Below, in pieces: positions 1,896 to 46,086 of a DNA stretch of 64,000 nucleotides. Positions within the stretch are counted from its first letter, which is position 1. Every line of letters starts with the position of its first letter. The position numbers were made by a program, and so were the translations under genes. The stretch covers positions 352,001 through 416,000 of the forward strand of contig JBMNJG010000012.1 of the NCBI GenBank assembly GCA_050951545.1, given 5' to 3'. The notes beneath the pieces are model-generated. The model had not been told where the DNA came from. It saw only the letters and a program-made list of their open reading frames with translations, and made no database searches. The stretch comes from Limnochordia bacterium. Lineage in GTDB: Bacteria > Bacillota > Limnochordia > DTU080.

Positions 1896-1923
1896 ATGGG
1901 GGTAGCTCGCGATTAGGTTCGAT

Positions 1924-2550
1924 CTAGTTACCCAGGCGATAGTCCCGATAGGTTATGGTTAGGCGCGTCGCGAATGGTGAGATGCTTGCCTCTTGCTGGG
2001 CCAACACCATAAAGCCCTTCATCAGCGTGTAGGTGTGGCTCACACGTACGGTACCCCAGTTATAGCGAGCTTCGGTTCGCCTCATAAGATGCTCATGCTC
2101 ATCGATCCAGATGCGGCCTTCAATAGCGCCAGAATGAAGCTGAGGTCGACGTACTCCCCTAAGCACGAAGTACGTCTTTTCGCTCACCTGTTCCTTGCCT
2201 CCATATTCCAAACTGAACCCGGCGAGAGCCTTCTCAAAATCAGCAAGATCCGCTAGAAGATCGGGCGGAATAAACGAGGGTGCTCCTTTGGCTTGCACGA
2301 TGACCGCATTGCCGTTGCGCTCGACGGTCGCGCTAAAGCGCCACCTACCTAGGATGCCCGTGATGTCTACATCTTGTGTGAAGCTCACTCGCTTCGGTTG
2401 CAGCATCGCCCCACGCATGAGTGATAGCAGTTGCTCTGCGCTTTCTTGCTCAGCGGCTGCCGCGACAGCCCCACAGGTCATGATAAGGGCAACGATCAGT
2501 AGGGCGCAGAGCAATTGTGCGAAGCCTACGGTGCTGGGTCGCTTTGTCAA
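1924..2550 (-). CDS. secreted LolA/outer-membrane lipoprotein-sorting-like protein
   Basis: Hydrophobic signal peptide ending AAAA and a beta-rich body with GRIWIDEHEHLMRRTE, typical of LolA-like folds. TTG start at 2550 chosen from the RBS; the ORF track starts at 2652. Confidence 0.5.
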   Translation of the reverse strand: MTKRPSTVGFAQLLCALLIVALIMTCGAVAAAAEQESAEQLLSLMRGAMLQPKRVSFTQDVDITGILGRWRFSATVERNGNAVIVQAKGAPSFIPPDLLADLADFEKALAGFSLEYGGKEQVSEKTYFVLRGVRRPQLHSGAIEGRIWIDEHEHLMRRTEARYNWGTVRVSHTYTLMKGFMVLAQQEASISPFATRLTITYRDYRLGN

Positions 2551-2674
2551 GCTGGTCCTCGCTTTCTTGCCGCATTCCTGCGGGAATGCTATGCTAGGAG
2601 CAAGCCATGAGGAGATATTCAAATACGCTCCCGCCCAAACAAGTTCGAACACTCCCTTTAGAGAGGAAACGCCG

Positions 2675-3514
2675 ATGAACGATCAGCCCAAGGAGCGTGT
2701 GTGGACGCTCAGCGAAGAAGAGATCGCCAATCCCATTTGCCAGGGTTGTGATGAGGCACTACAGGTCGGACAGGAAGTAGCGGAATGCCCTCGATGCAAA
2801 GCGCTCCATCATCTTTCGTGCTGGATACGACGAGGGGGTTGCGCTCAACATGGCTGTCCGCAGACGGCCGATGCATCGCTGACCGAGACCGTAACTCCCA
2901 CATACGACCCCCCCGCACGGGAAACTCTGGCCTGGTTGCCAGTGGCCATCACCATCTTGCTTCTTTTGCTTGTTGTAGGTGGTGGCATCTGGGCGTTTGT
3001 TAACCAGCCGTCATCAAAAGGTCATCTCACCATCATGGTGACCACTGGACCCGATGTCGATAGTCTGCAGCACCTAGCGGCTGACTTTAGTAGCGCTCAC
3101 GAAGGTCTGGAAGTGAGTGTGCTTGTTCTCCCTGCAGACTCTACTGAGATGTACGAACAGAAGCTGATCATTATGCTTGCTGCCAAGGACCCCCCAGACA
3201 TCATCATACTTCCTTACTCGCGGTTTCTCGTGTACGCTGCCCAGGGGGCTTTAGCACCGCTTGATGCGATAAAAGAGACAGTTGCCCAGGCCGTTCCCTA
3301 CGGCAAACGCCTGGCGAATGGAGAAGCGAATGGTCAATTCTATGGCGTTCCTCACCCTTCGCGCCCAGGCATTCTTGCCGTACCCGCTTCTAGCCACAAT
3401 CTAGTGGAGGCCACGGGGCTGCTGCTTCATGTGGTCAAGGGCCTTCCGTTTACAGCGGATCTTGATGACCTTGCTGGGGGCCAGCCACTGATCGCCGAGT
3501 CCAAAGATAAGTGA
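2675..3514 (+). CDS. prokaryotic RING-finger / transmembrane / partial extracellular solute-binding domain protein
   Basis: ATG at 2675 after GAGAGG. CQGC...CPRC...HHLSCW...GGCAQHGC zinc motif, then one TM helix, then an SBP-like lobe (YEQKLIIMLAAKDPPDII, GALAPLD, GQFYGVP). Confidence 0.7.
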   Translation: MNDQPKERVWTLSEEEIANPICQGCDEALQVGQEVAECPRCKALHHLSCWIRRGGCAQHGCPQTADASLTETVTPTYDPPARETLAWLPVAITILLLLLVVGGGIWAFVNQPSSKGHLTIMVTTGPDVDSLQHLAADFSSAHEGLEVSVLVLPADSTEMYEQKLIIMLAAKDPPDIIILPYSRFLVYAAQGALAPLDAIKETVAQAVPYGKRLANGEANGQFYGVPHPSRPGILAVPASSHNLVEATGLLLHVVKGLPFTADLDDLAGGQPLIAESKDK

Positions 3515-3589
3515 GTCTACTGACTGTCATTGGTTACGCATTCCTGTCGGATGCCTGCGCTATGCGGCTGGCATTAGCTGGGCAAGAGT

Positions 3590-3627
3590 GGTTTCGGATT
3601 AGAGCTGTCCGCCACTAATCCGAAACC
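3590..3627. terminator. hairpin between convergent genes, probable terminator
   Basis: Perfect 13-bp stem GGTTTCGGATTAG / CTAATCCGAAACC. Confidence 0.6.
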
Positions 3628-3649
3628 GAGTGACCCAAGAGGGTTAGGG

Positions 3650-4519
3650 TTACCAGTCCAGTTCTGAAAGAACGGCCCTGATATAGCGGATATCCTGCTG
3701 GGCGTACCATTCGCGATCGCCCGCCCGAGGCGCTTCAATGCACAACGGCCCATCGTACCCGGATGCCTTGAGCAGCTGAAGAAACTCGCGGTTGTTGATC
3801 TCACCCTCGCCTAAAGCAGAGGCCAGTCGTCCGCCGCTCGGAAGGCGAACCGAGTTTTTCAGGTGGACGTAATACAGTCTGTCACCACACTCAGCTATCG
3901 AGTCTGCGACGGAACGGGTACCCTGAAAGAAGACGACGTTGCCGTGATCGAGATTGATACCTACCGCTGGGTTGTCGATCATGTCGACAAGTCTGCGAGA
4001 GGGTGCGGGTAGGTCATGCAGGTAGCCCATATGGGTCTCAAAGGCAAGGCGGAAGCCGAGTGTGCCAGCCAATTCGCCCAGGCGCTTAAACCCCTGCGCC
4101 GCCTGCTGCCAGTGCTCCTCGGTAGCCACCGCTGAACCTTGCTTATCGTATTGGGCGTAGGGCACGCTGCGATCTGGGTTGCGCAGCGATCCAGCCATTG
4201 TGTTGCACACGGTAAGCTCAAACCGCTGGGCTGCCAGAGTAAAGAAGTGCTCGTACTCTGCCAGATTAGCCTCGCGTTCGTCGGCACTGCTGACCATCAA
4301 ATCTGGCCCAGGTCCTCCAAACAGCACATAGCGGAGCCCCGATTTCCTCTGTGCAGCCGCGATGGAGTCCAGATACTCCTCCACGCTCTCCGGAACCGAA
4401 CGCCGCTGACGGCGGAACTCGATGCCGTCGAAGCCCCAGCGCACAGCTTTCGTACACATCTCTTCGATCGTTTGACCCTGTTCGCAGTAGTTCACATGCA
4501 TGATAACGGGTTGTGCCAC
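3650..4519 (-). CDS. sugar phosphate isomerase/epimerase (xylose-isomerase-like TIM barrel)
   Basis: GFDGIE, LAFETH, INLDHGN, VHLKN, GYDGPLCIE motifs. GTG start after GGGAGG. Confidence 0.85.
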   Translation of the reverse strand: MAQPVIMHVNYCEQGQTIEEMCTKAVRWGFDGIEFRRQRRSVPESVEEYLDSIAAAQRKSGLRYVLFGGPGPDLMVSSADEREANLAEYEHFFTLAAQRFELTVCNTMAGSLRNPDRSVPYAQYDKQGSAVATEEHWQQAAQGFKRLGELAGTLGFRLAFETHMGYLHDLPAPSRRLVDMIDNPAVGINLDHGNVVFFQGTRSVADSIAECGDRLYYVHLKNSVRLPSGGRLASALGEGEINNREFLQLLKASGYDGPLCIEAPRAGDREWYAQQDIRYIRAVLSELDW

Positions 4520-4566
4520 GGGTAAACGCCTCCCACCGGAAATCCTTTTTTGCGCTATGGATGAAG

Positions 4567-5748
4567 TCAACACTCCATGATCGCTCGGATACGGTCTCGA
4601 ATAATCCCCTCAATCGCGGGGTCAAACGGCGCTGGCAGGTTGTAGACCTTCGCCGAGGTGTCTGGCTCGTAGCCACCCTCAGCAAAGTAACGAGTCGGCG
4701 CAATATAGCCAATGAGCCCATTGCTGTAGGCGACAGGGATCAGATGACGTTGCGGTTGAAGGTTCTTGATGAACAACCCGTAGTCGCAGCACACCTCGCC
4801 ACTCATCCCGACTAGAGAGAGCTCACGTGCCAGATCGAGGCGGTACAGATGGAACGCAGAGGTGTGGCGTCCATCGGCCAATGGCAGGTCCAAGACCTCC
4901 ATGCGGTGGTGGAGATGACCTGTTAGCTCTGTGGATGAGTGCTCCAGGACGCGGTTCACTTCCGCGCCCAAGGCATTACCAAAGAGCGTCACTTCCTGCG
5001 GCAGACCAGAGCGAAACCTCCTGGCACCAATCAGAGTGCAGTTAGGACGAACATCACCACAACAGCCCGCCAAAAAACCGGCACTCACACCAGGCAACGT
5101 ATTTTCCAGCCAGCGACGGGCCGCTCCCGGGTACTCCGCCGATATGGTGTAGTCTCCTAGGACAGTAGGATGGCATGTGAAGTGGAAGAGTATGCCTAAC
5201 ACTTGGGCGGTATGAGCATCGCAGAATGAGATGACCACGACCTCATCGTCGCGTACTCCAGCGGTGTTCGGAGCCATGACGGTGGTGCTACCAGTGGACA
5301 CTCGACGGTTGATGCTGTAGCCAGTAAGCTGACCTCTTCCCAGCTTGATCGTCACCTCGCACAGCTGTTGGCGCGCTTCATCCATCGCATCGATCAGTTT
5401 TTCCTGGAGATCATAGAGATAATCGGCGTCTGGCGGGCCTCCCGCGGTCAACAGGCCGTCTGCCGTCTGCGGGCCTGAGTGTGTATGACTGGCTGCCAGG
5501 AAAACACAGTCGGGTGCCAGCCCAAGGCGCTCCAAAGCCGCGGCCTTGACCCCGTCGTTAAGAGTAGCCCCAAAACCGATGATATCAGCCGTAACGATAC
5601 AGGCATTCTTGCCGTCTTCCTCTAACCAGAAGACACGGGCTTCAAGATCGTCCCGAACCGCTTCGGAGCCATGGTTGCGAAATCCAAAACCAGCCAGAGC
5701 AATCCCAACAGGTGGAGTAATGGAAAGCCTGGCTGTGCCCAATCGCAC
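4567..5748 (-). CDS. neutral/alkaline ceramidase-family metallohydrolase
   Basis: ITPPVG..LAGF, ASHTHSGP, FTCHPT, SAEYPG, GCCGD and EGGYE motifs. Confidence 0.8.
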   Translation of the reverse strand: MRLGTARLSITPPVGIALAGFGFRNHGSEAVRDDLEARVFWLEEDGKNACIVTADIIGFGATLNDGVKAAALERLGLAPDCVFLAASHTHSGPQTADGLLTAGGPPDADYLYDLQEKLIDAMDEARQQLCEVTIKLGRGQLTGYSINRRVSTGSTTVMAPNTAGVRDDEVVVISFCDAHTAQVLGILFHFTCHPTVLGDYTISAEYPGAARRWLENTLPGVSAGFLAGCCGDVRPNCTLIGARRFRSGLPQEVTLFGNALGAEVNRVLEHSSTELTGHLHHRMEVLDLPLADGRHTSAFHLYRLDLARELSLVGMSGEVCCDYGLFIKNLQPQRHLIPVAYSNGLIGYIAPTRYFAEGGYEPDTSAKVYNLPAPFDPAIEGIIRDRIRAIMEC

Positions 5749-5817
5749 ATGGATCGCCTCCTACAGGTTGAGCACCGACGTAGGGTTAGTACCCCCTACG
5801 TCGGCGCAACTAGCAGA

Positions 5818-6816
5818 CTACTGAACCTCGACGCGTGTGCCAGTGACAGCCGACTCGTGAGCCGCCATGGCGATGGCGACCACGTGTCGCCCTGCATGGC
5901 TATCGGCCTCGGGTGGTGTGCCAGTGCGGATCGACTCCACGAAGGCCACCATTTCATCATGCAACCCGTTGTTGCTGTCAGTCGGTATCTGGACAAGCTG
6001 CTCTCCGTGCTTGTGCAACAGGATTGGACCAGCAGCTGAGCCGGAGGTCAGCTTAGCTGTCCCCTTCGTCCCGGTTATTCCTAGCTCATAGCTGCCGATG
6101 CGGTGGACTCGACTGGAGGCTAACGAACCTACCGCCCCAGACTCAAACTCCATGCCGATGAAGATGCCCTCCTCCACCGTATTAGCTGGATCATCACCGC
6201 ATCTCATTGTTGCCTGTACGGCACGCACATCACCGGCCAACCAGGCGAGTTGATCAAGCTCATGGCTATAGAGCGAGAAGAGCCCGCCGTATGTCTCTTT
6301 CTTCAGTTGCCACCCACCTACGCCTCCGCCAGGACCCATACCAAAGCGAATGGCATGTGTTAAGCGAATGTCACCCAACTCTCCAGCGGCGACCAGTCGC
6401 TTTAGCTCGCGAAAAGACGCCTGGTAGCGGCGAACATAACCGATCATCAGCAAAACACCCGCGCGTTTTGTGGCCTCGATCATCGCATCGCATTGGGCCA
6501 GGGTCAAGGCCATTGGTTTCTCGCAGAAAACGTGCACGCCCGCCGCAGCTGCATCAATCGTGAGTTCAGCGTGTGTGAAGTTTGGTGTCACGATAGCCAC
6601 AGCATCAAGCTTCTCTTCGGCGAACATCGTCTTGTGGCATGCATAGACACTGGGGTTGGTACCCAGCTCGGAAGCGAGGGCCTGGGCAGACTCCGCGGAA
6701 GCGTCACACAAAGCGACGAGCTCCAGGTTTGGGATAATCTTCATATTTCGTGCATGTTGCCTGCCAAGACCGCCGCAACCTATCAGCCCAATCCGTATCG
6801 CCTTCTTACTAGTCAT
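5818..6816 (-). CDS. Gfo/Idh/MocA family oxidoreductase
   Basis: IGLIGCGGLG Rossmann motif, CEKPMA and HELD. Confidence 0.9.
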   Translation of the reverse strand: MTSKKAIRIGLIGCGGLGRQHARNMKIIPNLELVALCDASAESAQALASELGTNPSVYACHKTMFAEEKLDAVAIVTPNFTHAELTIDAAAAGVHVFCEKPMALTLAQCDAMIEATKRAGVLLMIGYVRRYQASFRELKRLVAAGELGDIRLTHAIRFGMGPGGGVGGWQLKKETYGGLFSLYSHELDQLAWLAGDVRAVQATMRCGDDPANTVEEGIFIGMEFESGAVGSLASSRVHRIGSYELGITGTKGTAKLTSGSAAGPILLHKHGEQLVQIPTDSNNGLHDEMVAFVESIRTGTPPEADSHAGRHVVAIAMAAHESAVTGTRVEVQ

Positions 6817-7020
6817 TCAGATCCACCGTCCCTTGCTTTATTACTGATCTTCAGTAGCGATCGTACCTATGTGGCTGAGCAACCTCGTACCTTCGTTCGC
6901 CTGTGTCAACTTTAGCAAGAAACTCAAGAAAGTGCGCACACCTACTTACGAAATACCCCGTCTATATACGGTCTTGGCTTGCCATTACCCTTCCTTGGAC
7001 GGCAAAAAGAGTCAGACATC

Positions 7021-7656
7021 TCATGACGATGCCATGCGCCGAGCAAAGACCCTAGCTGGTGCGCCGTCGCTGCCCACGAGGCAAAGGGGAGCGACCACCA
7101 AAAAGACCTCCTCTCCGGCAAACTCCTCCAGAGCCACTAGTCCTTCGACCAAGACCACACCCGAAGAAAGCAAGAGATCATGGAGGGCCAGGCAATGTGT
7201 GGCATGGATGTTTGGCGCATCTGTACCAATGAGGCGCACTCCATTGCCTCTGGCGAACCGTGCAGCATCGAGCGAAAGCCCAGGCATTTCTGTGAAGAAC
7301 TGGGGCGTCCCGAGATGCTGGTCCCACCCAGTACAAAGAAGCAGCCTTTGGCATGGAAGCGCCGCCTCGAGGTCTGCTACTGTCATCTCCTCTCCGGGAG
7401 CGCGGTGGCGGAGATCAACCACCCTTGCCGGACCGATCAGTGCCTCAAGAGGAAGCTGATCCGCGGTAAGCCCGCCTGGGACAAAGTGGCTGGGCGCATC
7501 GACGTGCGTCCCCGAGTGGCTGCCCAGATGCCACTGCGTAAGGCGGAAGCTGGCTTCGGGGTAGTCGCTGACCAATCTGCATACGATTGGGGGGTCTCCG
7601 GGAAACACGGGTGTGTCGACCGAGATGGGAAGAGTAAGATCACGCCAGTGGTGCAT
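7021..7656 (-). CDS. cyclase family protein (kynurenine formamidase-like)
   Basis: FPGDP, HSGTHVDAPSHF and DGAPARV motifs. Confidence 0.88.
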   Translation of the reverse strand: MHHWRDLTLPISVDTPVFPGDPPIVCRLVSDYPEASFRLTQWHLGSHSGTHVDAPSHFVPGGLTADQLPLEALIGPARVVDLRHRAPGEEMTVADLEAALPCQRLLLCTGWDQHLGTPQFFTEMPGLSLDAARFARGNGVRLIGTDAPNIHATHCLALHDLLLSSGVVLVEGLVALEEFAGEEVFLVVAPLCLVGSDGAPARVFARRMASS

Positions 7657-7825
7657 CTGTGCATGCCGCCCCTCTTGTCGAATACTTGGGTGTCGACAGC
7701 TGATCTCCTTTTACCTGTTACTTGATTGCCGAAAAACCGGATCCCGTGCATACAGGAACCGTGGGGCTTGCAGATCTGGTAGAATGATGGAAGTGATCGA
7801 AGAACGGCGAATAGGAGCATGTCCC

Positions 7826-8419
7826 ATGGGTGTACAAGCCAGAAACGTAGACGTTGCCAAAGAGGTAGAGGGTGTATCACTGGTTGAGGTCTTCGTGACC
7901 TTCGCGCGCATTGGGGCCTTTACCTTCGGGGGAGGTCTTGCCATGCTGCCCTTGTTTGAGAGAGAAGTGATCGATAGCAAGGGCTGGATTTCGCGTGAAG
8001 AGGTCTTGGACATCTACGCCATCAGTCAGTCCATCCCTGGTGTCATTGCAGGAAACGCAGCTGCTTTCATCGGTTATCGCCTGGCTGGCATTGCGGGGGC
8101 CGTGGCCGCGCTAATGGGGGTTATGGTACCCTCCCTCATCGTGATCATAGCTATCGCTACGTATTTCACCCAGTTTCGCGAGAATTTCTATGTGGCAAAG
8201 GCTCTGCAAGGAGCCAGGGCGTCGGTCGCTGCACTGATCATCCTAGCCGCTGTCCGTATCGGTCGGGCCTCACTGAAAAACACCTTCTCAGTGGTACTCG
8301 CCACATTGGCCCTGCTGATGGCCCTGTTGACAGATGTCGACATGATCTATGTGATCCTGGCTGGCGGCCTGTTAGGAATGTTCGCTTGCAGGATAACGTC
8401 GGGAGGCGGACAGCAATGA
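7826..8419 (+). CDS. short-chain chromate transporter (CHR family), subunit 1
   Basis: FARIGAFTFGGG and SQSIPG motifs. ATG at 7826 after AGGAG. Confidence 0.88.
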   Translation: MGVQARNVDVAKEVEGVSLVEVFVTFARIGAFTFGGGLAMLPLFEREVIDSKGWISREEVLDIYAISQSIPGVIAGNAAAFIGYRLAGIAGAVAALMGVMVPSLIVIIAIATYFTQFRENFYVAKALQGARASVAALIILAAVRIGRASLKNTFSVVLATLALLMALLTDVDMIYVILAGGLLGMFACRITSGGGQQ

Positions 8420-8964
8420 TCTATCTGCAACTGCTCTGGGTCTTCTTCCGACTCGGTCTGTTCACCGTAGGGGGCGGATACGCCATGCTGCCGCTGATCC
8501 AAGCAGAGATTGAGGGCCGTGGCTGGATTACGGCCGCCGAATTCGTCGACATGCTGGCCATCGCTGAGATGACGCCCGGCCCTGTGGGCGTCAATACTGC
8601 TACCTTCGTAGGATACCGTTTAGCGGGGGTTGCGGGCGCAGTTCTCGCCACCACTGGTATTGTCCTGCCATCATTGATCTTTGTACTACTGATCTCGAAA
8701 GCCTTGGACAAGTTTCGTGACCATCCCACGGTAGAGGCTATTCTATGCGGGATCCGACCCGTTGTAGCTGGTCTGATCGCTTCCGCGGCGGTATTCGTCA
8801 CTCAAGCGGCCATTGTCAGTGAAGGGTCCGCTCAGGGCATGCTCAGAGTGGATCCGGTGGCCATCATTCTCTGCCTCGCTAGTATCGTCGCAGTGGGCAG
8901 ATACCGGCTACATCCTATCAGTGCCATCGTGGCAGCGGGGATAGTGGGAACGCTTGTTTTCTGA
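8416..8964 (+). CDS. short-chain chromate transporter (CHR family), subunit 2
   Basis: GLFTVGGGY and AEMTPGPVGVNTATFVG motifs. ATGA overlap with the upstream CHR gene. Confidence 0.9.
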   Translation: MIYLQLLWVFFRLGLFTVGGGYAMLPLIQAEIEGRGWITAAEFVDMLAIAEMTPGPVGVNTATFVGYRLAGVAGAVLATTGIVLPSLIFVLLISKALDKFRDHPTVEAILCGIRPVVAGLIASAAVFVTQAAIVSEGSAQGMLRVDPVAIILCLASIVAVGRYRLHPISAIVAAGIVGTLVF

Positions 8965-9017
8965 CCTTCGGCGTCTGTCCTAGCCTCGCACAGCGGTACT
9001 TCATGCCGATCCACGTA

Positions 9018-9044
9018 AAGAGGGCGCTCAGCGCCCTCTTTTAT
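9018..9044 (+). terminator. intrinsic terminator after the CHR pair
   Basis: AAAGAGGGCGCT-C-AGCGCCCTCTTT inverted repeat followed by a T-rich tract. Confidence 0.7.
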
Positions 9045-9159
9045 TGTATGCTGGGCCGTGGCCACAGGCCGCTGATGTTCGTTAGGAATCACAAAAGGCG
9101 TAGCAAATGTCACAAGGATTCCAGCCCTTTCCATTCTAGAATGAACACCGCCCCATGTA

Positions 9160-9195
9160 TAGGACCATACTCCTACTTATGGGACCAATGTCGGG
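9160..9195. promoter_or_regulatory. tandem NarL/LuxR-type candidate operator palindromes
   Basis: TAGGA-CCATAC-TCCTA (9160-9175), plus a degenerate copy TGGGA-CCAATG-TCGGG starting 20 bp later. Confidence 0.4.
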
Positions 9196-9244
9196 CGTGC
9201 ACGTCGATGGTGCCGCATCGAAGGACTCTCGGAGGAGTGTCAAC

Positions 9245-9943
9245 ATGCTGATACCAAAATCAGATCGAGCAAAGACGGGTATTCTTGATCAGGACGCCCT
9301 AGCTCGATATGCCTTGGAGCACCTAATAAGCCAATCATCGGATCTGCAACTGGTGGTCCAATGGAAGGGAATTCCCGCGACTTGCGAGCTGATGTCCGTG
9401 GAGATGGACGTGTTGACGGTCTCCATCGAGACAGTAGAGGCCTCAGGAGTAGCGCTTGGGCCCTCCCTTGCTCTGTTGTCTGCGCATGTTCCGGTACTGG
9501 CCACCAGCGCCTGCATGGAGCCAGCCTTGGTGGTGGATTGCTTACAGGCGGGTGCAAAGGGCTTCGTCTGGAAGGGTGTCGACACGCAAGGTCTCATGCA
9601 AGCGGTAAGGGCTGTACTGGCTGGCGACCGGCCAATCATGCCCTCTATGGCTGACCGACTGGTTTCCTATGTATTGAGTCACGACATCCGCCAGATGGAT
9701 CGCTGCTCCGAGCTGACGGGCCGAGAGAACGAGGTGCTTGGACTTATTGCCAATGGGCTGAGTAACAAGGAGATTGCGGCGACCTTGAGCCTCAGTGTAC
9801 GTACAGTGAAAGCGCATGTGAGTAACGTGCTGCGAAAACTCGACGTAGCTGATCGTACGCAAGCCGCTCTCGTAGCAGTCAGCATGGATCCGGAGAGCCG
9901 TCCCCTGCAGCGGTACTACCGTCGTGGTACCAAGGTACGATAG
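9245..9943 (+). CDS. LuxR/NarL-family response regulator with atypical receiver domain
   Basis: C-terminal LTGRENEVLGLIANGLSNKEIA...TVKAHVSNVLRKL HTH and AGAKGFVWK receiver motif. ATG after GGAGGAG. Confidence 0.88.
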   Translation: MLIPKSDRAKTGILDQDALARYALEHLISQSSDLQLVVQWKGIPATCELMSVEMDVLTVSIETVEASGVALGPSLALLSAHVPVLATSACMEPALVVDCLQAGAKGFVWKGVDTQGLMQAVRAVLAGDRPIMPSMADRLVSYVLSHDIRQMDRCSELTGRENEVLGLIANGLSNKEIAATLSLSVRTVKAHVSNVLRKLDVADRTQAALVAVSMDPESRPLQRYYRRGTKVR

Positions 9944-10035
9944 CCCAGCGCCCTAAGGAACAATGGAAAGATGAAGGCGAAGGTCATAATGTAGGAGATG
10001 CCTGAATGATCTGCGGCACTGGAAGGGGTCCCGAG

Positions 10036-10950
10036 ATGCGCCCAAACCTCATGTGGAGACTGGCAGTGACTCTCGCCCTTGTCTCAGCGTGGTTTTTGCT
10101 CGGAGCTGTCGGCTGGGGCCGTGCTGAGGAAGCTCAGCTCAGAGTGACTCCAAGTCAGGTCAGTGTGGCGATTGATCCGTCTCGCGTCTCCTCTCTGGAA
10201 TTGGCGGGCGGACTGCAGGCATATCTCTTGTTTCCGACGGACGCTGAACAGCTCACCCTTGGTTTTTCACTCACCCCACTGATCGACCAAGCAAGTGGCC
10301 GCGCTCTGCCAGCAGACCGACTTCTGGTAGGTGTGGGTGATCTGCAGCCTGTGTCCGCAATGGGCCAACAGCCGGTTCCGTTGTCAGCATCCGGACCCAC
10401 GATAGTTCAGATTGGTGTGCAAGCGGGGGCTTTCGACTCCCCAGGGCTTTACCAAGGGCGGTTGTGCCTAAGCGCAAACGGCGGCAGTGTGGAGGCAGTT
10501 GCGAATGTCGACGTGCAGATCGAGATACTGCCGTGGGCGGCCATTCGTCAGCTCGCACCGTATCCACTGGTAGTAACTTCACAGGACATTCCTGGTCCTG
10601 ATGCCGTGATGAGTAGTGAGGAGCAGTACGTTCTTCTTGTGGCGGGTAATCACCGCTGGCAACTGGTGGTTCAGGCACCTGATGGACTTCAGCCCCAATC
10701 TGGTCCCGCCACGGCACCGCTCGCTGGCCGTTTAGACATGAGAGTCTTCCCGAGCGATTGGGTGCAACCAGTGACAAATGGCTTTGCGAAGCTCACTGAA
10801 GATCCTGCAGTGCTAGCGGTCGGTAAACCGACTGGCGATTGTGCGGACGGCTGGGTAGCGGTGAGCCTTGAGGTGCGTATGCCCTACGGGCGCCACCAAG
10901 CCGCAGGAGCCTACAGCGGAGATCTGACGCTGGCAGTGAGACCGTACTAG
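10036..10950 (+). CDS. secreted two-domain pilin/adhesin-like protein
   Basis: Signal peptide and two beta-sandwich-like halves, each ending in a pilin-type strand (PGLYQGRLCLS; AGAYSGDLTLAV). Confidence 0.5.
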   Translation: MRPNLMWRLAVTLALVSAWFLLGAVGWGRAEEAQLRVTPSQVSVAIDPSRVSSLELAGGLQAYLLFPTDAEQLTLGFSLTPLIDQASGRALPADRLLVGVGDLQPVSAMGQQPVPLSASGPTIVQIGVQAGAFDSPGLYQGRLCLSANGGSVEAVANVDVQIEILPWAAIRQLAPYPLVVTSQDIPGPDAVMSSEEQYVLLVAGNHRWQLVVQAPDGLQPQSGPATAPLAGRLDMRVFPSDWVQPVTNGFAKLTEDPAVLAVGKPTGDCADGWVAVSLEVRMPYGRHQAAGAYSGDLTLAVRPY

Positions 10951-11039
10951 AATCACCAACACAGTGGCACCTCTCACAGCAGACCGCGCGTGGTTGCTGC
11001 GGGTGCAAATAAAACAAGGAAGTACAGGAGGAATCACGG

Positions 11040-11804
11040 ATGAAAAGGCTCTTTCTTGTAGCTCTCGCTCTTTGCTTGGTACTCGCAGCAGTGCCAGCAA
11101 TGGCGGAAAACCTGCTTGACGGCAGGCAGATAACGGTAGGGCCGTGGATTGTCATCGAGACAGAGGGTTACGCAACCGGAGCTCCGCGCTACTTCAACCC
11201 TGGTGAGGCTTGGGGTAACCAGGAAACCCAGGTGAGACTACCGATGAGTGCGCTTATCCCCTGCTACTTGGAGATGCTATTGCAGGGCAATGACGTCAAT
11301 GCCCTTCTTCAGAGCTGGGGTCCGGATGCCAACGCTGACTATGCCCCTGGTAACATGTACCTGGCCTTTCACCCCGAGGTGGGCGGCTACATCCATGCTG
11401 ACTGGAGTCTGTACCCGGATAGCCATGACAACAACTACGAGGCTCCCCTGGGCGACGACTCCTTCATTCGTGGGTGCGATACCTTCAAGACTCAGCTCTG
11501 GTCCAACATGAACTACAAGTACACTGTGTCAGTGAAGGATGGCGGGCTCAAGGGCGGACTCGATGCCAACGCCGTTCTCCCGGTAGACATGCGTGCTGCT
11601 GTGTCCGTCACCGACCCGGGACTGGCTAATGCTGTGTGGGGCGGCACCCATACCTTCCTCGCTGACGGCGACGCAGTCCTGGTCGATGGCGGGAACTTCC
11701 TCCAGTCCAGGGTGATCTACCAGCAGTTCCGAGTACCGTTCAACCGGAGTTTCTCGGCTGGTCATTACACAGGTGAGATCACCTTTACCGCTGCTACGAT
11801 CTAG
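11040..11804 (+). CDS. secreted major pilin-like protein
   Basis: Signal peptide (AVPAMA), two Cys in the mature part, C-terminal AGHYTGEITFTA strand, strong AGGAGG RBS and many C-ending codons. Confidence 0.55.
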   Translation: MKRLFLVALALCLVLAAVPAMAENLLDGRQITVGPWIVIETEGYATGAPRYFNPGEAWGNQETQVRLPMSALIPCYLEMLLQGNDVNALLQSWGPDANADYAPGNMYLAFHPEVGGYIHADWSLYPDSHDNNYEAPLGDDSFIRGCDTFKTQLWSNMNYKYTVSVKDGGLKGGLDANAVLPVDMRAAVSVTDPGLANAVWGGTHTFLADGDAVLVDGGNFLQSRVIYQQFRVPFNRSFSAGHYTGEITFTAATI

Positions 11805-11826
11805 TTTCGGGAGAGATGCACGACAG

Positions 11827-11857
11827 AGGGGTCGGACGCGCCCGACCCCTTTTCTTG
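11827..11857 (+). terminator. intrinsic terminator after the pilin-like gene
   Basis: AGGGGTCGG-ACGCGC-CCGACCCCT followed by TTTCTT. Confidence 0.75.
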
Positions 11858-11893
11858 TAAGAGGCGCTGCTGATACGGACGATCAGGGAGTGA

Positions 11894-12721
11894 GTGACCA
11901 TGAAAAGATGCTGCATGTGGATGGTGGCAGCCATCCTGATGAGTGTGGCTGTGGGCGGCCCAGCACTGGCCGCCGGGTACCAGCCTATAAAGGTGGAGCC
12001 TTCTCGATTCGTCTTTGAAGGAAAGCCTGGGGAGCAGATAACGGGCTCCATCGTAGTGCGCAACACAGGTCAGGAACCAGCCACTCCTCAGGCGCTTCTG
12101 AGCGATTGGACTCTTGATGAGGGCAACAGACTGGTTGTCCTGGAAGCTGGTAGTCTCGATTCGTCACTGGAGGGGTGGATCAAGTTTAACCCGCGCAGGT
12201 TTCAGATGCAGCCTAACGCGGCTCAGACCGTGCGCTTCACCGTCAAGATACCTCATGACGCTCAGCCCGGTGAACGCCGCGGCATGATCGCCTTTGAGCA
12301 GATCGTCCCCTACGACGAAGGCGGAGTTGGAGCCACAGCTCGGGTACAGGTAACGAGTACGATCTACGTAGCCGTGCTACCCATAGAACGACATATCGAC
12401 ATCATCGGTCTTCACATACAGCCAAACGAAGACACCCGGACCTCAACGTTGGTGCTTCAGGTCAAGGGGACGGGTACTGGTCATTACCGCGGCGTGGGTC
12501 GCTTCCAGATTCTGCCCGATGGTGATGAGACACCTCTTGCCTCAGGAGATCTGGAACCACTTGTCGTCATGCCAGGTGTGGCGAGTCGCTTTGGTGGTAG
12601 CGTCGAGTATGTGTTAGAGCCGGGCCGCTATCGCCTCGCTGTTGAGATCATCTCTGAGGAAGCAGGTAGTCTACCTCTTCACAGGATCTATGCTTTCGAA
12701 GTGCCCACGACCGAAGTCTAA
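11894..12721 (+). CDS. PapD-like fimbrial chaperone-like protein
   Basis: Signal peptide; IKVEPSRF, IVVRNTG, WIKFNPRRF..QPNAAQTVRF and GERRGMIAFE; second Ig-like domain with GTGHYR and PGRYRL. Confidence 0.65.
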   Translation: MTMKRCCMWMVAAILMSVAVGGPALAAGYQPIKVEPSRFVFEGKPGEQITGSIVVRNTGQEPATPQALLSDWTLDEGNRLVVLEAGSLDSSLEGWIKFNPRRFQMQPNAAQTVRFTVKIPHDAQPGERRGMIAFEQIVPYDEGGVGATARVQVTSTIYVAVLPIERHIDIIGLHIQPNEDTRTSTLVLQVKGTGTGHYRGVGRFQILPDGDETPLASGDLEPLVVMPGVASRFGGSVEYVLEPGRYRLAVEIISEEAGSLPLHRIYAFEVPTTEV

Positions 12722-12738
12722 GCTGGAGGAGTCTCGCC

Positions 12739-15732
12739 ATGCGCTTTTTTCGCTCCACCGGGATCCTCATCACCATGTGCCTTGTGTGGCTCATGGCATG
12801 GAGCAATGAGCCAGCAAGGGCCTCGTTATCCGAGATGGATACCAGTGTGGTTCGATTGGATATCAACGACCGCAAGTTCAGTGAGGATTTTGAGTTGTAC
12901 GACGATGGAGAGACGGTCCTTCTTCCCCTTAGCCAGGTTGGACAGCTCTTGGACGCGAAGGTGAACCTAGATCCAGTGCTGATGGCCGCCACCGTTGTTC
13001 GCCCCTGGGATGGGCTAGAGGGGCTCGTTGACCTTCAGCGCCAGGTCTGCTTCTGGGGAGAAGAGCAGCTCGTCATGTCACCTCATGCTGAGCTTGGGCC
13101 AGGCGATTTCTACGTGCCGCTACCGATCGTGGAACGGCTTATGGACGTACAGGCAGTATGGAAGCCCGAGACACAGGTGCTGCGGATCACCGTAGGTCGT
13201 CAACTCAGCAAGCTACGGCCAGCAGCAGGCACACCGAGTGACTCCGTAGTAACCAGCGAAGAGTTTGAGCCCTCACCCACTCGTACGCCGCCCATGGTCA
13301 GCTTGGGGGCGATCCAATACGTGCTCAGGCATGAGTTGACCGTGCAAGGGTCTGAAGAGCATAGGCAGGATAGCCTGGCCTTGTCCGCACACTGGCAAGC
13401 GGCGGGCATTCCGGTGGATATCGCAGTCAGTGCAACCGATGTCCTGTCACCGCACCCGAGGTGGGAGCTCAAGCGCGCGACGGCCACCTACCTCTCTCCT
13501 GACGTGGAGGTGGTTGCTGGCGACACGAGTCTGAGCCTGGGTAGGGTGCTGCAGAGCAAGGAGATTCGTGGCCTGCGACTGGCAGCGCCTCCCGGTTGGA
13601 CATCTGGTGTTTTGCATGCGGTCACGACGATCGAAGGGTGGGTCGCCGACGGTTCCGAGGTCGAACTCCGCGTCAACGGAGCCTACTTTGGCAAGCAAGT
13701 GGCGACAGACGGGTATTACGCCTTCAGACATGTGCCTCTGCAGATCACCAGAGCAAACCGTCTGGAGATTGTGGTCATTGAGACGAGCGGCTTGCGCCGA
13801 GTGGAGACGCGTGTTCTAACGGCGACGCCGCGCCTTCTATCTGCGGGGAAGCTGCAGGCCTCAGCGGGTGGAGGTTGGGTGAGATCCGAGAAGACTGGGG
13901 AGTGGGATTCGGCAGTGATGGGCGCATCTGCCTATACGGGTGTCACCTCGTGGCTTACAGTGGGTGGCGAACTAGCCCGGCAGGTAATTCTCGATGGCAG
14001 CCAAGATCATCCGGATCATCTGGCAGGTGCCATAGGACTCGCCCTGCGGGCCAGCGACGGCCTAGTCTTTGCTCTGGACTGGTTGGCCAGTCAACCACAG
14101 GGAGCAGTCGGTGCGCCCGCACAGGGAGCTGAGTTGACTGCTAGCCTGCGCATGGGACGTACATCGTGGCAGAGCATGATCTTCTACCGAGAGCCAGACC
14201 TGTACCTGTTTTCACCGGGTGCGCCAGATACGCAAGGTTTTCGGGTGGTCGGCGAGTACAACATCAACCGCGCCTGGAGTCTGCAAGGGTCCTATGAACT
14301 AGCCACTTCGGTCAGCGACTCATCTCGGTCTCCAAGAACCAGGGTTGGTGGCGTGCTGCAATGGACTCCTTCGCTTGATCGCTCCGTGGTGCTTCGCCTG
14401 AATCACGTCCCTAGAGATAGAGACAGGGTTTCCTTGACGCACCGCTACAGCAATGTACAAAAGGGTACTGAACTGAAGTCTGAGTCAGAGGCGACGTGGG
14501 TGGAACGTCCCCAGGCGTCGCCTGTTTTGACCAATGTCAGTGCCCGCTTAGAGTTCGACCAGGCTCTAGACAGCGCAAGCTACCTGGGCCTACGCTACAG
14601 GGGGGTGGCAGATTGGCCTCTAGGCGGTGATCTTTCCCGGCGTGGCTTCGCACTGCTCACGAACACGGTCCAGGTCGACGCCACATGGATGCCAGGAACG
14701 TGGCACGTGTATGGAGCAGTGCAGATGACCGACGCTCGCGATACGAGCGGAGGAACGCCACCCTTCTACGAAAGCGGAGCTGTTCTCAGTATTTCGAGAA
14801 TCACCGGGGTGTGGGTCAGCGGTATGGCAAGCGAACTCATACACATGCGCCGCAACAGCACTCCTTTGGGTTCCATAGTCAACGGAGTCTATGTGGGAGC
14901 AAGACCCGAGCCCAAGGCTTTGGTCCTACTGAAGCTGGAGCACACTCAGCCTCTGTGGAGCGGCGTCTTTAGGGAGAGCATGGGCATCTCGCTGAGCGCT
15001 GATGGACAACTGAGAAATGGCTTCCATCTCAGTGCGTTGGGGCGTGTCACAGTAACGCATGCGCAGCCTGAATATTACCTTGGCGTCACACTTAGTCAGG
15101 GCATCGGCTTTTCCGAGGGAGGTGTCCGCGGTTTTCGGGTTGTTGACGGTCGGCCCCTTGGATACGTCACAGGCACCGTGTACATTGATGCCAATCGCAA
15201 CGGTCGGCGGGATGCGGGTGAGAAGACTGTGGCTGGGGCTCCAATCGCCTTGGCTGGTCGGCGTACCGTCACCGATCGCGACGGCAGGTACTGCTTTGAG
15301 TTTGTCAATCCGGGCACGTACCGGCTAGGGCTCGACCCTAACAAGCTGTCCGCTGACTACACCCCGTACAGCGACCCCGTGGTTATCCGCCTGCCCGCCA
15401 ACGCGAATCTAAGCCAAGATTTCGGCGTTACTTTGAACGGCACTGTGGAGGGCACGGTCTTCGTGGACCTCAATGGCGATGGCCTGTGGCAACCCGAAGA
15501 ACCTCGGCCAGCATGGGTCAAGGTGGCTCTGAATGGAACTATCGAGGCGTTCACGGATAGCCGGGGCAACTTCACCCTGAGCAACGTGAATCTCGGCACG
15601 TACCAATTGGCGGTCCCTGAGTCAAGTCTTCCTCCTGGAACTATAGCCCCTGCACCTATCGACATTAAGATCACGGAGGATAACCTGGATGTGTGGGGTA
15701 TACGAGTGCCGCTGACGCTTATGGGCAACTAG
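12739..15732 (+). CDS. fimbrial usher-like outer-membrane protein with C-terminal SdrD-B-like repeats
   Basis: Signal peptide; usher-plug-like segment (IEGWVADGSEVELRVNG...GYYAFRHVPL...NRLEIVV..SG); long run of amphipathic beta strands; two GxVxxDxNxxG repeats. Confidence 0.65.
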   Translation: MRFFRSTGILITMCLVWLMAWSNEPARASLSEMDTSVVRLDINDRKFSEDFELYDDGETVLLPLSQVGQLLDAKVNLDPVLMAATVVRPWDGLEGLVDLQRQVCFWGEEQLVMSPHAELGPGDFYVPLPIVERLMDVQAVWKPETQVLRITVGRQLSKLRPAAGTPSDSVVTSEEFEPSPTRTPPMVSLGAIQYVLRHELTVQGSEEHRQDSLALSAHWQAAGIPVDIAVSATDVLSPHPRWELKRATATYLSPDVEVVAGDTSLSLGRVLQSKEIRGLRLAAPPGWTSGVLHAVTTIEGWVADGSEVELRVNGAYFGKQVATDGYYAFRHVPLQITRANRLEIVVIETSGLRRVETRVLTATPRLLSAGKLQASAGGGWVRSEKTGEWDSAVMGASAYTGVTSWLTVGGELARQVILDGSQDHPDHLAGAIGLALRASDGLVFALDWLASQPQGAVGAPAQGAELTASLRMGRTSWQSMIFYREPDLYLFSPGAPDTQGFRVVGEYNINRAWSLQGSYELATSVSDSSRSPRTRVGGVLQWTPSLDRSVVLRLNHVPRDRDRVSLTHRYSNVQKGTELKSESEATWVERPQASPVLTNVSARLEFDQALDSASYLGLRYRGVADWPLGGDLSRRGFALLTNTVQVDATWMPGTWHVYGAVQMTDARDTSGGTPPFYESGAVLSISRITGVWVSGMASELIHMRRNSTPLGSIVNGVYVGARPEPKALVLLKLEHTQPLWSGVFRESMGISLSADGQLRNGFHLSALGRVTVTHAQPEYYLGVTLSQGIGFSEGGVRGFRVVDGRPLGYVTGTVYIDANRNGRRDAGEKTVAGAPIALAGRRTVTDRDGRYCFEFVNPGTYRLGLDPNKLSADYTPYSDPVVIRLPANANLSQDFGVTLNGTVEGTVFVDLNGDGLWQPEEPRPAWVKVALNGTIEAFTDSRGNFTLSNVNLGTYQLAVPESSLPPGTIAPAPIDIKITEDNLDVWGIRVPLTLMGN

Positions 15733-15795: not shown

Positions 15796-15821
15796 AAAAA
15801 GGGCGCCGACTTCGGCGCCTT
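15796..15821 (-). terminator. intrinsic terminator of the 6S RNA
   Basis: Minus-strand AAGGCGCCGAAGTCGGCGCCCTTTTT. Confidence 0.75.
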
Positions 15822-45026: not shown

Positions 45027-45671
45027 ATGCGAACACTGATCTTTCTTGCTGGAGACTTCTGGATTGACGCCTGGGATGCCACTCCTGAGTTCACTGGCCC
45101 TTGGGACTGCATTATCTGCGCAGATGGCGGTGGCTACCATTCCCTCCGCCTTGGCATCGTACCGGATGTACTCATTGGAGACTTCGATTCATTATCCAAG
45201 AGCGATATTGAGGGTATTGGCGCTACCACAGTTATCTCCTTCCCAGTGCTGAAAGATAAGACTGATGCCCATCTGGCAGTTGACGAGGCTCTCCGACGTG
45301 GCAGCACGCAGGTCGTGTTGGCTGGGGCCATCGGGGGTCGCCTGGACCACACGCTAGCCAATATCGGGCTGTTGCGGTTACTGCACCGCCACGGAGTAAA
45401 AGCGGTGGCCAGCGATGGCCATCAGACGGTCTACTATGTAACCGACGAACTCGTTCTCACAGGTAGGGCCCAACAGACACTCTCAGTTCTGCCACTGACC
45501 CCTGAGATAGACGGCCTCTCGCTCACTGGTCTGCGTTGGGGTTTGAACAGTACCTACCTTGAGCTGGGAGACACACGCACGATGAGCAACGAGTTCCTAG
45601 GCGGCCCAGCAAGAGTAGCGCTGAAGTCTGGCGAGCTGCTGGTTATCGTCAGCCAACCTCCTCCACACTGA
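45027..45671 (+). CDS. thiN: thiamine diphosphokinase
   Basis: ADGG, GDFDS, KDKTD, GGRLDH..AN and SNE motifs. Confidence 0.92.
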   Translation: MRTLIFLAGDFWIDAWDATPEFTGPWDCIICADGGGYHSLRLGIVPDVLIGDFDSLSKSDIEGIGATTVISFPVLKDKTDAHLAVDEALRRGSTQVVLAGAIGGRLDHTLANIGLLRLLHRHGVKAVASDGHQTVYYVTDELVLTGRAQQTLSVLPLTPEIDGLSLTGLRWGLNSTYLELGDTRTMSNEFLGGPARVALKSGELLVIVSQPPPH

Positions 45672-46086
45672 TACCATGGCGACGAAGCAGGGCTGCCGTG
45701 ACGCCTGGACCAGGGCGGACGGTGCTGCTGAAGGTACCGTCGTAGATGATGCTCACCCCACACGAGGGGCTGCGTCCTTTCAGAACGGCGCGCCGGATGC
45801 CATGCTCTTGGCATAGCCCCAAAGCCGCATGTGCTCCCTTGACGTACTGCTGAGTGACGTTCACTCCGTGTTTTGTCAACACTTGTGCTGAAGAGTCAAT
45901 GACATCATCGCCGTGCCCACCCACAATCTCTGCTGGCTCGCGAGGTGTCGGTAGTCCGCCTGCTTGTTCAGGGCAAAAAGGAACCGCCTCTGCTGAGCCT
46001 ACATCCACCGTGTCGACTTGACAGCTCTGGCCGTCATAGCGACAAGCGTGCCCCATAAGACACGCCGAAACAAGCACTTTTTCCAT
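45649..46086 (-). CDS. DUF523 family protein (TudS-like 2-thiouracil desulfidase)
   Basis: SACLMG..CRYDG, CPEQAGGLPTPR and SPSCG motifs. Confidence 0.87.
   Translation of the reverse strand: MEKVLVSACLMGHACRYDGQSCQVDTVDVGSAEAVPFCPEQAGGLPTPREPAEIVGGHGDDVIDSSAQVLTKHGVNVTQQYVKGAHAALGLCQEHGIRRAVLKGRSPSCGVSIIYDGTFSSTVRPGPGVTAALLRRHGISVEEVG

Follow-up and report, generated by a model that had tools for sequence, protein, structure and literature searches.

Chaperone-usher pili are textbook Gram-negative, mainly proteobacterial machines, and the locus described here raises the question of whether such a machine also belongs to a member of the Bacillota. It lies in a stretch of 64,000 nucleotides from a Limnochordia bacterium (assembly GCA_050951545.1, contig JBMNJG010000012.1, positions 352,001 to 416,000), hereafter the window, and consists of four open reading frames (ORFs), A to D, all on the plus strand between 10006/10036 and 15732. 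A preliminary description had read them as four co-oriented genes with signal peptides, encoding a divergent and possibly undescribed chaperone-usher fibre system in a diderm Firmicute. The ORF listing and the translations agree with the first part of this description. We also consider it probable that the cassette is a divergent chaperone-usher-type fibre assembly system of diderm, outer-membrane-bearing Bacillota, a reading supported by the model of D, the homology of C, the Omp85 and LpxC genes of the host, and a distribution restricted to Omp85-positive genomes among those searched. The four genes are as follows.

10036..10950 (alternative start 10006), plus strand: gene A, 304 amino acids (aa), or 314 aa from 10006
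11040..11804, plus strand: gene B, 254 aa
11894..12721, plus strand: gene C, 275 aa, with residue 3 as the probable start
12739..15732, plus strand: gene D, 997 aa, the whole gene

The genes are separated by 89 (A-B), 89 (B-C), and 17 (C-D) bases, and the base composition of the region is like that of its surroundings. Read from the translations by eye, all four N-termini pass from basic to hydrophobic to small residues and resemble Sec signal peptides.

Gene D and its usher-like fold

The preliminary description had noticed an usher-plug-like segment in D and had made its reading depend on a barrel and a plug appearing in a model of the protein. Both a barrel and a domain at the position of the plug are present in our AlphaFold2 model, which was built on a 58-sequence alignment and has a predicted local distance difference test score (pLDDT) of 84.9 and a predicted template modelling score of 0.63; a model from only 4 sequences (pLDDT 36.3) was discarded. 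A full-length profile search with D gave 30,733 matches at E values up to 0.001, dominated by giant proteins with SdrD_B repeats. For the alignment, we kept 41 single-stretch proteins of 921 to 1090 aa among the 150 matches listed, beside P0002 and P0004, and left out the multi-stretch giants and three partial proteins. The predicted parts of D are listed below.

12841..13191, plus strand: N-terminal periplasmic domain (alpha/beta), residues 35-151, of the "stalk" or copper-amine-oxidase N-terminal type
Residues 161-178, plus strand: disordered linker after the N-terminal domain
13297..13587, plus strand: first six long strands of the barrel, residues 187-283 (DSSP of the model; hhalign to the start of the FimD barrel)
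13618..13818, plus strand: plug-position beta domain, residues 294-360, with six short strands (DSSP), inserted after the sixth barrel strand
13852..15114, plus strand: the other approximately 24 long strands of the barrel, residues 372-792 (DSSP; matches to the PapC and FimD pores and to the SlpA barrel)
15160..15720, plus strand: two C-terminal beta sandwiches, residues 808-885 and 895-994

The modelled architecture resembles that of an usher, with a barrel, an insert at the plug position after strand 6, and both N-terminal and C-terminal domains. The order of the parts is also that of ushers, running from the N-terminal domain through six strands to the small beta domain, and then through the rest of the barrel to the two C-terminal sandwiches. 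When the model was compared with the PDB using Foldseek, ranks 1 to 18 were all FimD or PapC, the best match having an E value of 8.7e-28 and a probability of 1.00 over approximately 1000 columns at 11-13% identity. The next families were SdrD (2.6e-11), which matched the C-terminal domains only, and then the SlpA barrel (1.8e-7). Re-scoring with VIA-align gave FimD (3rfz_E) a Z score of 20.0, with 617 residues aligned at a root-mean-square deviation of 10.1, while other barrels scored near Z 15; this alignment pairs residues 47-994 of the model with 125-834 of the chain and reaches the C-terminal domains of FimD. We also ran a VIA search of 48,161 representative chains that was independent of Foldseek. 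It returned the SlpA barrel at Z 15.4 (473 residues aligned, barrel only), PapC at Z 15.3 and 15.2, and FimD at Z 15.0 (622 aligned), and residues 48-993 of D were spanned by the ushers only.

Profile comparison points the same way for the first part of the barrel. The D family aligned with Escherichia coli FimD in hhalign (40.7%, E 2.9e-4), D residues 181-410 pairing with FimD 176-412, and the stretch of FimD aligned with D 294-360 is what we take to be its plug. Within this plug-position domain, N313 and L334 are invariant or nearly so among the 58 sequences. The ends of the protein carry other signatures. Homologues of D are named "stalk domain-containing" and its N-terminus gives a Pfam Cu_amine_oxidN1 match (E 1e-4, 22.6 bits) under the cut-off of 24.2, while the C-terminal domains match Pfam SdrD_B (1.4e-13) and CarboxypepD_reg (3.5e-10), both over the cut-off. 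Sequence searches of the PDB with D gave nothing significant. Altogether, these findings show that the predicted fold and domain order of D are usher-like.

The chaperone and the candidate subunits

The preliminary description had called C a PapD-like protein with two immunoglobulin (Ig) domains, and its sequence is detectably homologous to the PapD_N-family chaperones. Its homologues in a phmmer search include a "fimbrial biogenesis chaperone" of Calothrix (E 7e-12, 28% identity over 90%), which itself passes the PapD_N cut-off with 23.5 against 23 bits and gave no tblastn match to plasmids. PF00345 is recorded for 76 of 120 relatives of the Calothrix protein among the matches listed, many of which are named as periplasmic chaperones of fimbriae or pili. 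For family comparisons, we used a C profile of 23 Bacillota sequences from which cyanobacteria were excluded. In hhalign, this profile matched the cyanobacterial PF00345 chaperones at 100% (E 5.9e-41) over 259 columns covering both domains, as in two-domain chaperones of the PapD family.

The same profile is also related to the chaperones of Gram-positive WxL loci. Against a set of five genuine WxLIP (DUF916/DUF3324) proteins, each adjoining a WxL pilin and taken from three Omp85-negative genomes of the Bacillota sample, the C family scored 97.5% (E 5.9e-12, 222 columns) and the cyanobacterial PapD_N family 94.5% (E 7.4e-8), compared to 6.9% for the hhalign control pair. C itself has sub-threshold matches to NPCBM_assoc (22.1 bits) and WxLIP_PGBD (15.3 bits, cut-off 27.3), and at E values under 0.1, WxLIP_PGBD is touched by 8 of 17 C-family members, the best exactly at the cut-off of 27.3 bits, and WxLIP_HBD by 4 of 17. 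The hidden Markov model (HMM) of the C family gives genuine WxLIP proteins 17-27 bits and FimC 3 bits. A hydrophobic anchor at the C-terminus separates the groups: it occurs in 0 of 23 C-family proteins, 0 of 20 cyanobacterial members, and 5 of 5 WxLIP proteins, and within the final 60 residues, the peak hydropathy over 19 residues never exceeds 1.32 in the C family (23 of 23) and never falls below 2.42 in the WxLIP set (5 of 5). R38 of the N-terminal strand would correspond to the Arg of the classical Arg/Lys pair; of the 23 sequences, 19 have R at this position and 2 have K. PDB searches with the C sequence and with the family profile gave nothing significant. Together, these comparisons show C to be a homologue of two-Ig-domain chaperones that is predicted to be soluble and periplasmic and is related to both PapD_N and WxLIP.

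We built a quick tree of 52 chaperones, comprising the 23 C-family and 20 cyanobacterial sequences, the 5 WxLIP proteins, 2 membrane-anchored forms described below, 1 sequence from genome G284, and FimC. The three main groups meet in an open fork, and the FimC branch has a length of 5. Since the fork is open, the tree neither supports nor rejects an origin of WxLIP inside the diderm Firmicute family. The two anchored forms join WxLIP with an SH-aLRT support of 87, subject to a long-branch warning.

Genes A and B encode the candidate subunits. The terminal strand motifs G-x-Y-x-G that had been reported from the sequence, two in A and one in B, are present and conserved. Each of the two domains of A ends in such a motif, with G137 and Y139 invariant in the first and G291 invariant in the second, C-terminal one (16 sequences). 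B ends in AGHYTGEITFTAATI, where G241, Y243, and G245 are invariant (17 sequences), and the family ending can be written F-R-V-P-x(6)-G-x-Y-x-G-x-V-x-F. The conserved cysteines C75 and C146 of B each occur in 16 of 17 members, and a conserved segment D-G-x-V/I-x-W/F of the B family is a candidate for an N-terminal donor strand. A is always the first gene of the cassette (15 loci), and hhalign finds a weak similarity between its residues 188-302 and the C-terminal half of B (22.7%, E 9.2e-4).

Database searches place neither protein in a known family. A has no Pfam, NCBIfam, or PDB sequence match; B has no Pfam, NCBIfam, or PDB match, with 0 of 17 family members matching Pfam at a meaningful level and no PDB match for the family profile. 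SCPU was not matched by any of 17 B-family and 16 A-family members, and the WxL domain was not matched by A, B, or the B family. When the B family was compared with three WxL pilins by hhalign, the signal peptide alone aligned; its alignments with small subunits of the cyanobacterial type, drawn from two families, were confined to the signal peptide or the last-strand motif. In a language-model Atlas, the clusters nearest to B are unnamed ones of Omnitrophota, Cyanobacteriota, and Deinococcota; the nearest named clusters, which serve as leads only, contain SCPU in 14% of members (score 0.92) and WxL in 88% (score 0.91).

The preliminary description had proposed modelling of a chaperone-pilin complex. 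Using custom alignments, we obtained a median of 0.39 for C with B (runs 0.33, 0.75, and 0.39), against 0.00 for the best of 3 controls, with at least 56% of contacts in agreement between runs and a partner pLDDT of at least 66. The mark used for such complexes is reached by 116 of 157 solved complexes and by 2 of 215 mismatched pairs, and at values of 0.60 or below by 18 of the 157 and by both of the passing mismatches. Since chaperone-pilin complexes have already been solved, the pass may reflect likeness to them rather than binding, and we take it as weakly favoring an interaction.

By analogy with known chaperone-usher systems, A and B would be exported by Sec and captured by the soluble chaperone C, which would complete their fold with its own strand. 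C would then hand them to D, an outer-membrane barrel with its pore closed by the plug domain, where donor-strand exchange would link the subunits into a head-to-tail chain that passes out to the cell surface with no need for ATP. The two-domain protein A is a candidate tip or minor subunit, and B is a candidate major subunit that would form the shaft of the fibre. That the subunits polymerise by way of donor strands, that A and B have these roles, and that cells bear fibres are all inferred.

Host genome, distribution, and competing explanations

The diderm nature of the host, as claimed in the preliminary description, is borne out. The closest homologues of the cassette proteins carry the names of Limnochordia or of Firmicutes/Bacillota metagenome-assembled genomes (MAGs), and the host genome (3.64 Mb, 93.9% complete) has matches to Omp85/BamA (180 bits) and LpxC (304 bits) that lie on one contig approximately 11 kb apart (G000:C11:33432-34280 and 45100-45903). 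Diderm Firmicutes are known to keep outer-membrane genes in one cluster. There are also three separate Spo0A_C matches of 121.8, 99.1, and 92.4 bits (C3:170137-170445, C12:276490-276804, and C12:191390-191698), where Spo0A is normally expected as a single copy. Because of the BamA, LpxC, and Spo0A_C matches, the host is read as a member of the Bacillota with the gene set for a lipopolysaccharide-bearing outer membrane and the master regulator of sporulation. The earlier view of the host as an apparent spore-former thus stands for the regulator gene, while sporulation itself is a prediction.

Genome-wide Pfam searches of the host gave no match to Usher (PF00577), a search that was positive in an E. 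coli control, and none to WxL (PF13731) or SCPU (PF05229) at E values up to 1. No Sortase (PF04203) match was found either, in line with the earlier remark that no sortase is visible. Near-identical DNA was found in 19 sequencing runs of metagenomes, whose sources were bioreactors, anaerobic digesters, landfills, and sludge.

A scan with the C family, limited to one genome per species, found 18 related loci in Limnochordia, Hydrogenispora, Halanaerobium congolense DSM 11287, Orenia metallireducens MSL40, a Halanaerobiales MAG, and Bacillota MAGs. By phmmer and iterated HMMs, A is present in 15 of these loci, B in 17, and C and D in all 18. The synteny survey that had been suggested gave a uniform answer: the order A-B-C-D is kept in 15 of 15 loci with room for it and no other order was seen, while the flanking genes are unrelated to each other. 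The linkage of A, B, C, and D exceeds chance. In a "Clostridia bacterium DTU080" MAG (locus L005, 2413-5010), three ORFs of 212, 271, and 258 aa stand in place of a single D gene, which could reflect a pseudogene or an assembly error.

The cassette is restricted to Omp85-positive genomes among those searched. Omp85 occurs in 100 of 401 sampled Bacillota genomes and in 13 of the 13 that carry the B family, one of whose B matches is weak (2.3e-5). These 13 carriers span six coded families and therefore do not represent 13 independent events. The genomes behind loci L004, L010, L012, L018, and L020 were checked as well, and 5 of 5 have Omp85. The B family was absent from 13 sampled genomes of the host's own class, and it was found in 28 of 102 genomes of the class of H. 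congolense. The preliminary description would have withdrawn its reading if such loci were routine in the phylum; they occur in 13 of 401 genomes of the phylum sample, and in one class of diderm Firmicutes they are not rare (28 of 102).

A wider class became apparent in metagenomes, where 54 loci were retrieved with the cyanobacterial chaperone family. In the cyanobacterial-type loci (L023-L073), genes for two small subunits precede those for a PapD_N chaperone and then a D-like protein, and 20 of 22 loci of at least 9 kb encode, after the chaperone, a protein of 860-1350 aa that matches the D HMM. PF00577 is matched by 0 of 8 of these D-like proteins scanned and CarboxypepD_reg by 8 of 8. In hhalign, their family pairs with that of the Bacillota D proteins over 769 columns (99.94%, E 2.7e-36) and not significantly with FimD. 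SCPU was found in 0 of 10 small subunits scanned. Since PapD_N chaperones in cyanobacterial-type contigs have a D-like partner, the chaperone-plus-D pair is older and wider than Bacillota, and since the proteins scanned from these loci lack PF00577 and SCPU, the loci differ from CccS/CccP/Slr0019 as published.

Several observations weigh against reading the cassette as a chaperone-usher system. D has no Pfam Usher match at E values up to 1, and its model has approximately 30 long strands in total, a number read from DSSP alone, while the FimD barrel has 24. In the VIA search of representatives, the ushers and the SlpA barrel tied within 1 Z for the modelled protein. C has no Pfam PapD_N match of its own, and its family shows no significant similarity to FimC alone (hhalign 0.2%, E 0.29); Y158, a tyrosine in 22 of 23 sequences, stands at the classical lysine position in a mapping taken from that non-significant alignment. 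A and B have no detectable relation to the Fimbrial, SCPU, and WxL families, and for their putative pilin nature, with an incomplete Ig fold and a donor strand, the sequences show only a conserved last-strand motif. Finally, a promoter and terminator scan of the locus gave counts not above those of shuffled sequence.

One alternative keeps the machinery and changes the product. The same C and D proteins could export A and B as a non-fibrillar surface coat, either a capsule-like layer or a covering of the spore or sacculus. Analogous products are the Caf1 capsule and the spore coat protein U of Myxococcus, which is deposited by archaic chaperone-usher systems. For a pilin, B is large (254 aa, with a conserved pair of cysteines), many cassettes have just two subunit genes, and the host has its three Spo0A_C matches. 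Tipless filaments that may be a structural matrix are noted in a preprint on the Elr/WxL pilus (bioRxiv 10.64898/2026.10.17.759780). The cassette has no tie to sporulation genes, however, its flanks vary among loci, and A has the two domains that a tip adhesin would be expected to show. The chemistry of strand-exchange polymerisation would not differ between the two cases, which are set apart only by the morphology of the product, and we regard a coat as unlikely.

The observations on D invite another alternative, in which D is a general large outer-membrane barrel, either a porin or a connector of outer membrane to wall of the SlpA/OmpM type, and A, B, and C are unrelated secreted Ig-like proteins that are not threaded through it. 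The tie of SlpA with the ushers in the wide search (Z 15.4 versus 15.0-15.3), the approximately 30 long strands, and the "stalk" domain would fit such a protein. However, twenty orders of magnitude separate the ushers from SlpA in Foldseek (8.7e-28 versus 1.8e-7), only the ushers align the barrel, the inserted domain, and the C-terminal domains together, and Pfam finds no SLH domain in D. D also adjoins a PapD_N-related chaperone in 18 of 18 Bacillota loci and in 20 of the 22 longer cyanobacterial-type loci, the two D families being homologous over the 769 columns given above, and we judge this alternative very improbable.

A WxL-type system like that of Enterococcus, in which the cytoplasmic membrane and the wall are the site of action and D has no part in secretion, would fit the homology of C to WxLIP chaperones and the 8 of 17 C-family members that touch WxLIP_PGBD, but is scarcely credible given the anchor counts (0 of 23 versus 5 of 5), the lack of a WxL domain in A, B, the B family, and the host genome, the lack of a sortase in that genome, and the confinement of the cassette to Omp85-positive genomes among those searched. 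We therefore return to the divergent chaperone-usher system as our reading of the locus.

Surroundings, variants, and known systems

Upstream of A lies a gene for a response regulator.

9155..9943, plus strand: NarL/LuxR-type response regulator with a receiver and a GerE helix-turn-helix (Pfam GerE 1.3e-20, Response_reg 5.4e-07)

Its NCBIfam matches are MadR/NarL/FimZ-like and all under their cut-offs. A relative stands upstream of the cassette in 1 of 18 related loci (L009), and the gene is thus a possible regulator outside the conserved cassette. In the gap between the regulator and A, one base is missing at 9944 or 9948 in contigs from two different DNA runs; these single-base losses are strain variation, and the region is the likely promoter of the cassette. 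Strong G+C-rich hairpins with a T run lie at 9017-9041 (plus strand), upstream of the regulator gene, and at 15802-15819 (minus strand), which is 70 bases beyond the D stop on the opposite strand. Two contigs of a metatranscriptome library from a biogas fermenter (X20) match B with zero differences (11007-11243 and 11352-11565). Apart from these parts of B, the library has one further piece past 16351, and gaps in its cover are uninformative. As DNA may be present in such libraries, the contigs are a hint of transcription of B.

Other arrangements of C-like chaperones occur in the Bacillota sample. In two Omp85-negative genomes (loci L081 and L082, genomes G182 and G215), a C-like chaperone with a hydrophobic C-terminal tail adjoins a 200-aa subunit ending in TTTAAY. 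The C-family HMM gives these chaperones 56-70 bits and a WxLIP HMM gives them 8-16 bits; in L082, no ORF of at least 150 aa follows in the 1 kb downstream. A second, different cassette (L087, G284:C12:1-7768) is present in another Omp85-positive genome, and in two further Omp85-positive genomes (L088 and L089) a 240-aa secreted protein is encoded with a tandem double C-like chaperone of 551-555 aa and a protein of 381-431 aa. Of these last proteins, 2 of 3 end in what we take to be a secretin-like motif.

L081, ORFs 997-1920 and 1917-2519, minus strand: chaperone and subunit pair, in one of the Omp85-negative genomes
L082, ORFs 763-1365 and 1369-2289: chaperone and subunit pair, in one of the Omp85-negative genomes
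L087, 1740-2303: 187-aa subunit
L087, 2323-3300: 325-aa C-like chaperone (C HMM 2e-15)
L087, 3337-5910: 857-aa D-like protein (D HMM 2e-17)
L087, 5966-6802: 278-aa subunit-like protein
L088 (G308:C18), ORFs 1471-2202, 2319-3974, and 3999-5294, with a second copy at 6452-9912
L089 (G010:C119), ORFs 5444-9110, minus strand

Among the control genomes, the Pfam WxL model was positive in Deinococcus radiodurans and WxLIP_PGBD was above the cut-off in Thermotoga maritima, both of which are diderms outside Bacillota.

A broader evolutionary reading is possible, and we offer it tentatively, as a proposal that may well prove wrong. The cassette could represent, in Firmicutes, a third branch of donor-strand fibre systems that is widespread and undescribed, with a soluble chaperone between PapD and WxLIP and a non-PF00577 usher bearing transthyretin-like C-terminal domains, and within Bacillota it could be the ancestral outer-membrane form of the WxL pilus. 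With loss of the outer membrane, the usher would have been dropped, the chaperone would have gained a membrane anchor, and a sortase-linked base would have been added. The anchored C-like chaperones beside a 200-aa subunit in two Omp85-negative genomes seem to be intermediate forms.

What makes the locus important is the occurrence of a complete chaperone and usher-fold pore, as predicted, in Firmicutes that kept their outer membrane. The C family is significantly related to both PapD_N and WxLIP, which makes a common origin of the two chaperone groups testable, as is the question of what becomes of an outer-membrane assembly machine once a lineage loses its outer membrane. The cassette is present in the cultured H. 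congolense DSM 11287 and O. metallireducens MSL40, so experiments are feasible. Anaerobic digesters, bioreactors, and landfills, in which carriers are common, are settings where adhesion and aggregation are of consequence.

A full-text search, with subscription journals and supplements outside it, found no paper on a chaperone-usher system in diderm Firmicutes, and the matches opened on the topic mentioned chaperone-usher only for E. coli or in general reviews. The claim of an undescribed system therefore holds as far as this literature goes, but the wider class to which the cassette belongs is shared with cyanobacterial-type contigs.

Compared to the classical FimC/FimD and PapD/PapC systems, the cassette has the same predicted parts: an usher-fold pore with a plug-position insert and two C-terminal domains (D), a soluble periplasmic two-Ig-domain chaperone of the PapD_N superfamily (C), and subunit genes upstream in one operon without an ATPase gene. 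It differs in its Bacillota host and in that the window proteins have no PF00577, PF00345, or Fimbrial match. The N-terminal domain of D is of the stalk/Cu_amine_oxidN1 type and its C-terminal domains are SdrD_B/CarboxypepD_reg-like, the model has approximately 30 long strands against the 24 of FimD, and C, tentatively, appears to have Tyr for the Lys of the Arg/Lys pair.

With the archaic (sigma) systems, such as Csu and the cyanobacterial CccS/CccP/Slr0019, it shares a compact operon of subunits, chaperone, and usher and, as in the cyanobacterial cases, a non-proteobacterial diderm host; the chaperone family nearest to C is cyanobacterial and PapD_N-positive. Unlike these systems, it has no SCPU domain in A, B, or the host genome. 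The cyanobacterial clusters, as far as the available text of the two sources goes, consist of an SCPU subunit, a PapD_N chaperone, and a PF00577 usher (PMC4390875; bioRxiv 10.1101/130278).

The Elr/WxL pilus of Enterococcus faecalis and other Bacilli offers the third comparison. According to the preprint, of October 2026, Gram-positive WxL loci use a membrane-anchored chaperone, and no usher, to build donor-strand pili, 96.7% of WxL chaperones are membrane-anchored, and the system is confined to Bacillota, mostly Bacilli; WxL and PapD_N chaperones are disjoint in a CLANS map at E 1e-20, and a shared ancestry of the two families is left open (bioRxiv 10.64898/2026.10.17.759780). The words diderm, Limnochordia, Halanaerobiales, and Negativicutes do not occur in that text. 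Unlike the Elr/WxL loci, our cassette of only four genes has a predicted soluble chaperone, no WxL domain (PF13731), no LPXTG anchor protein or sortase, and an usher-like outer-membrane pore. It is like them in belonging broadly to the same phylum, in the homology of C to DUF916/DUF3324, in subunits that end in a last strand of the G-x-Y-x-G type, and in the chemistry proposed for both, in which donor-strand complementation would be followed by donor-strand exchange.

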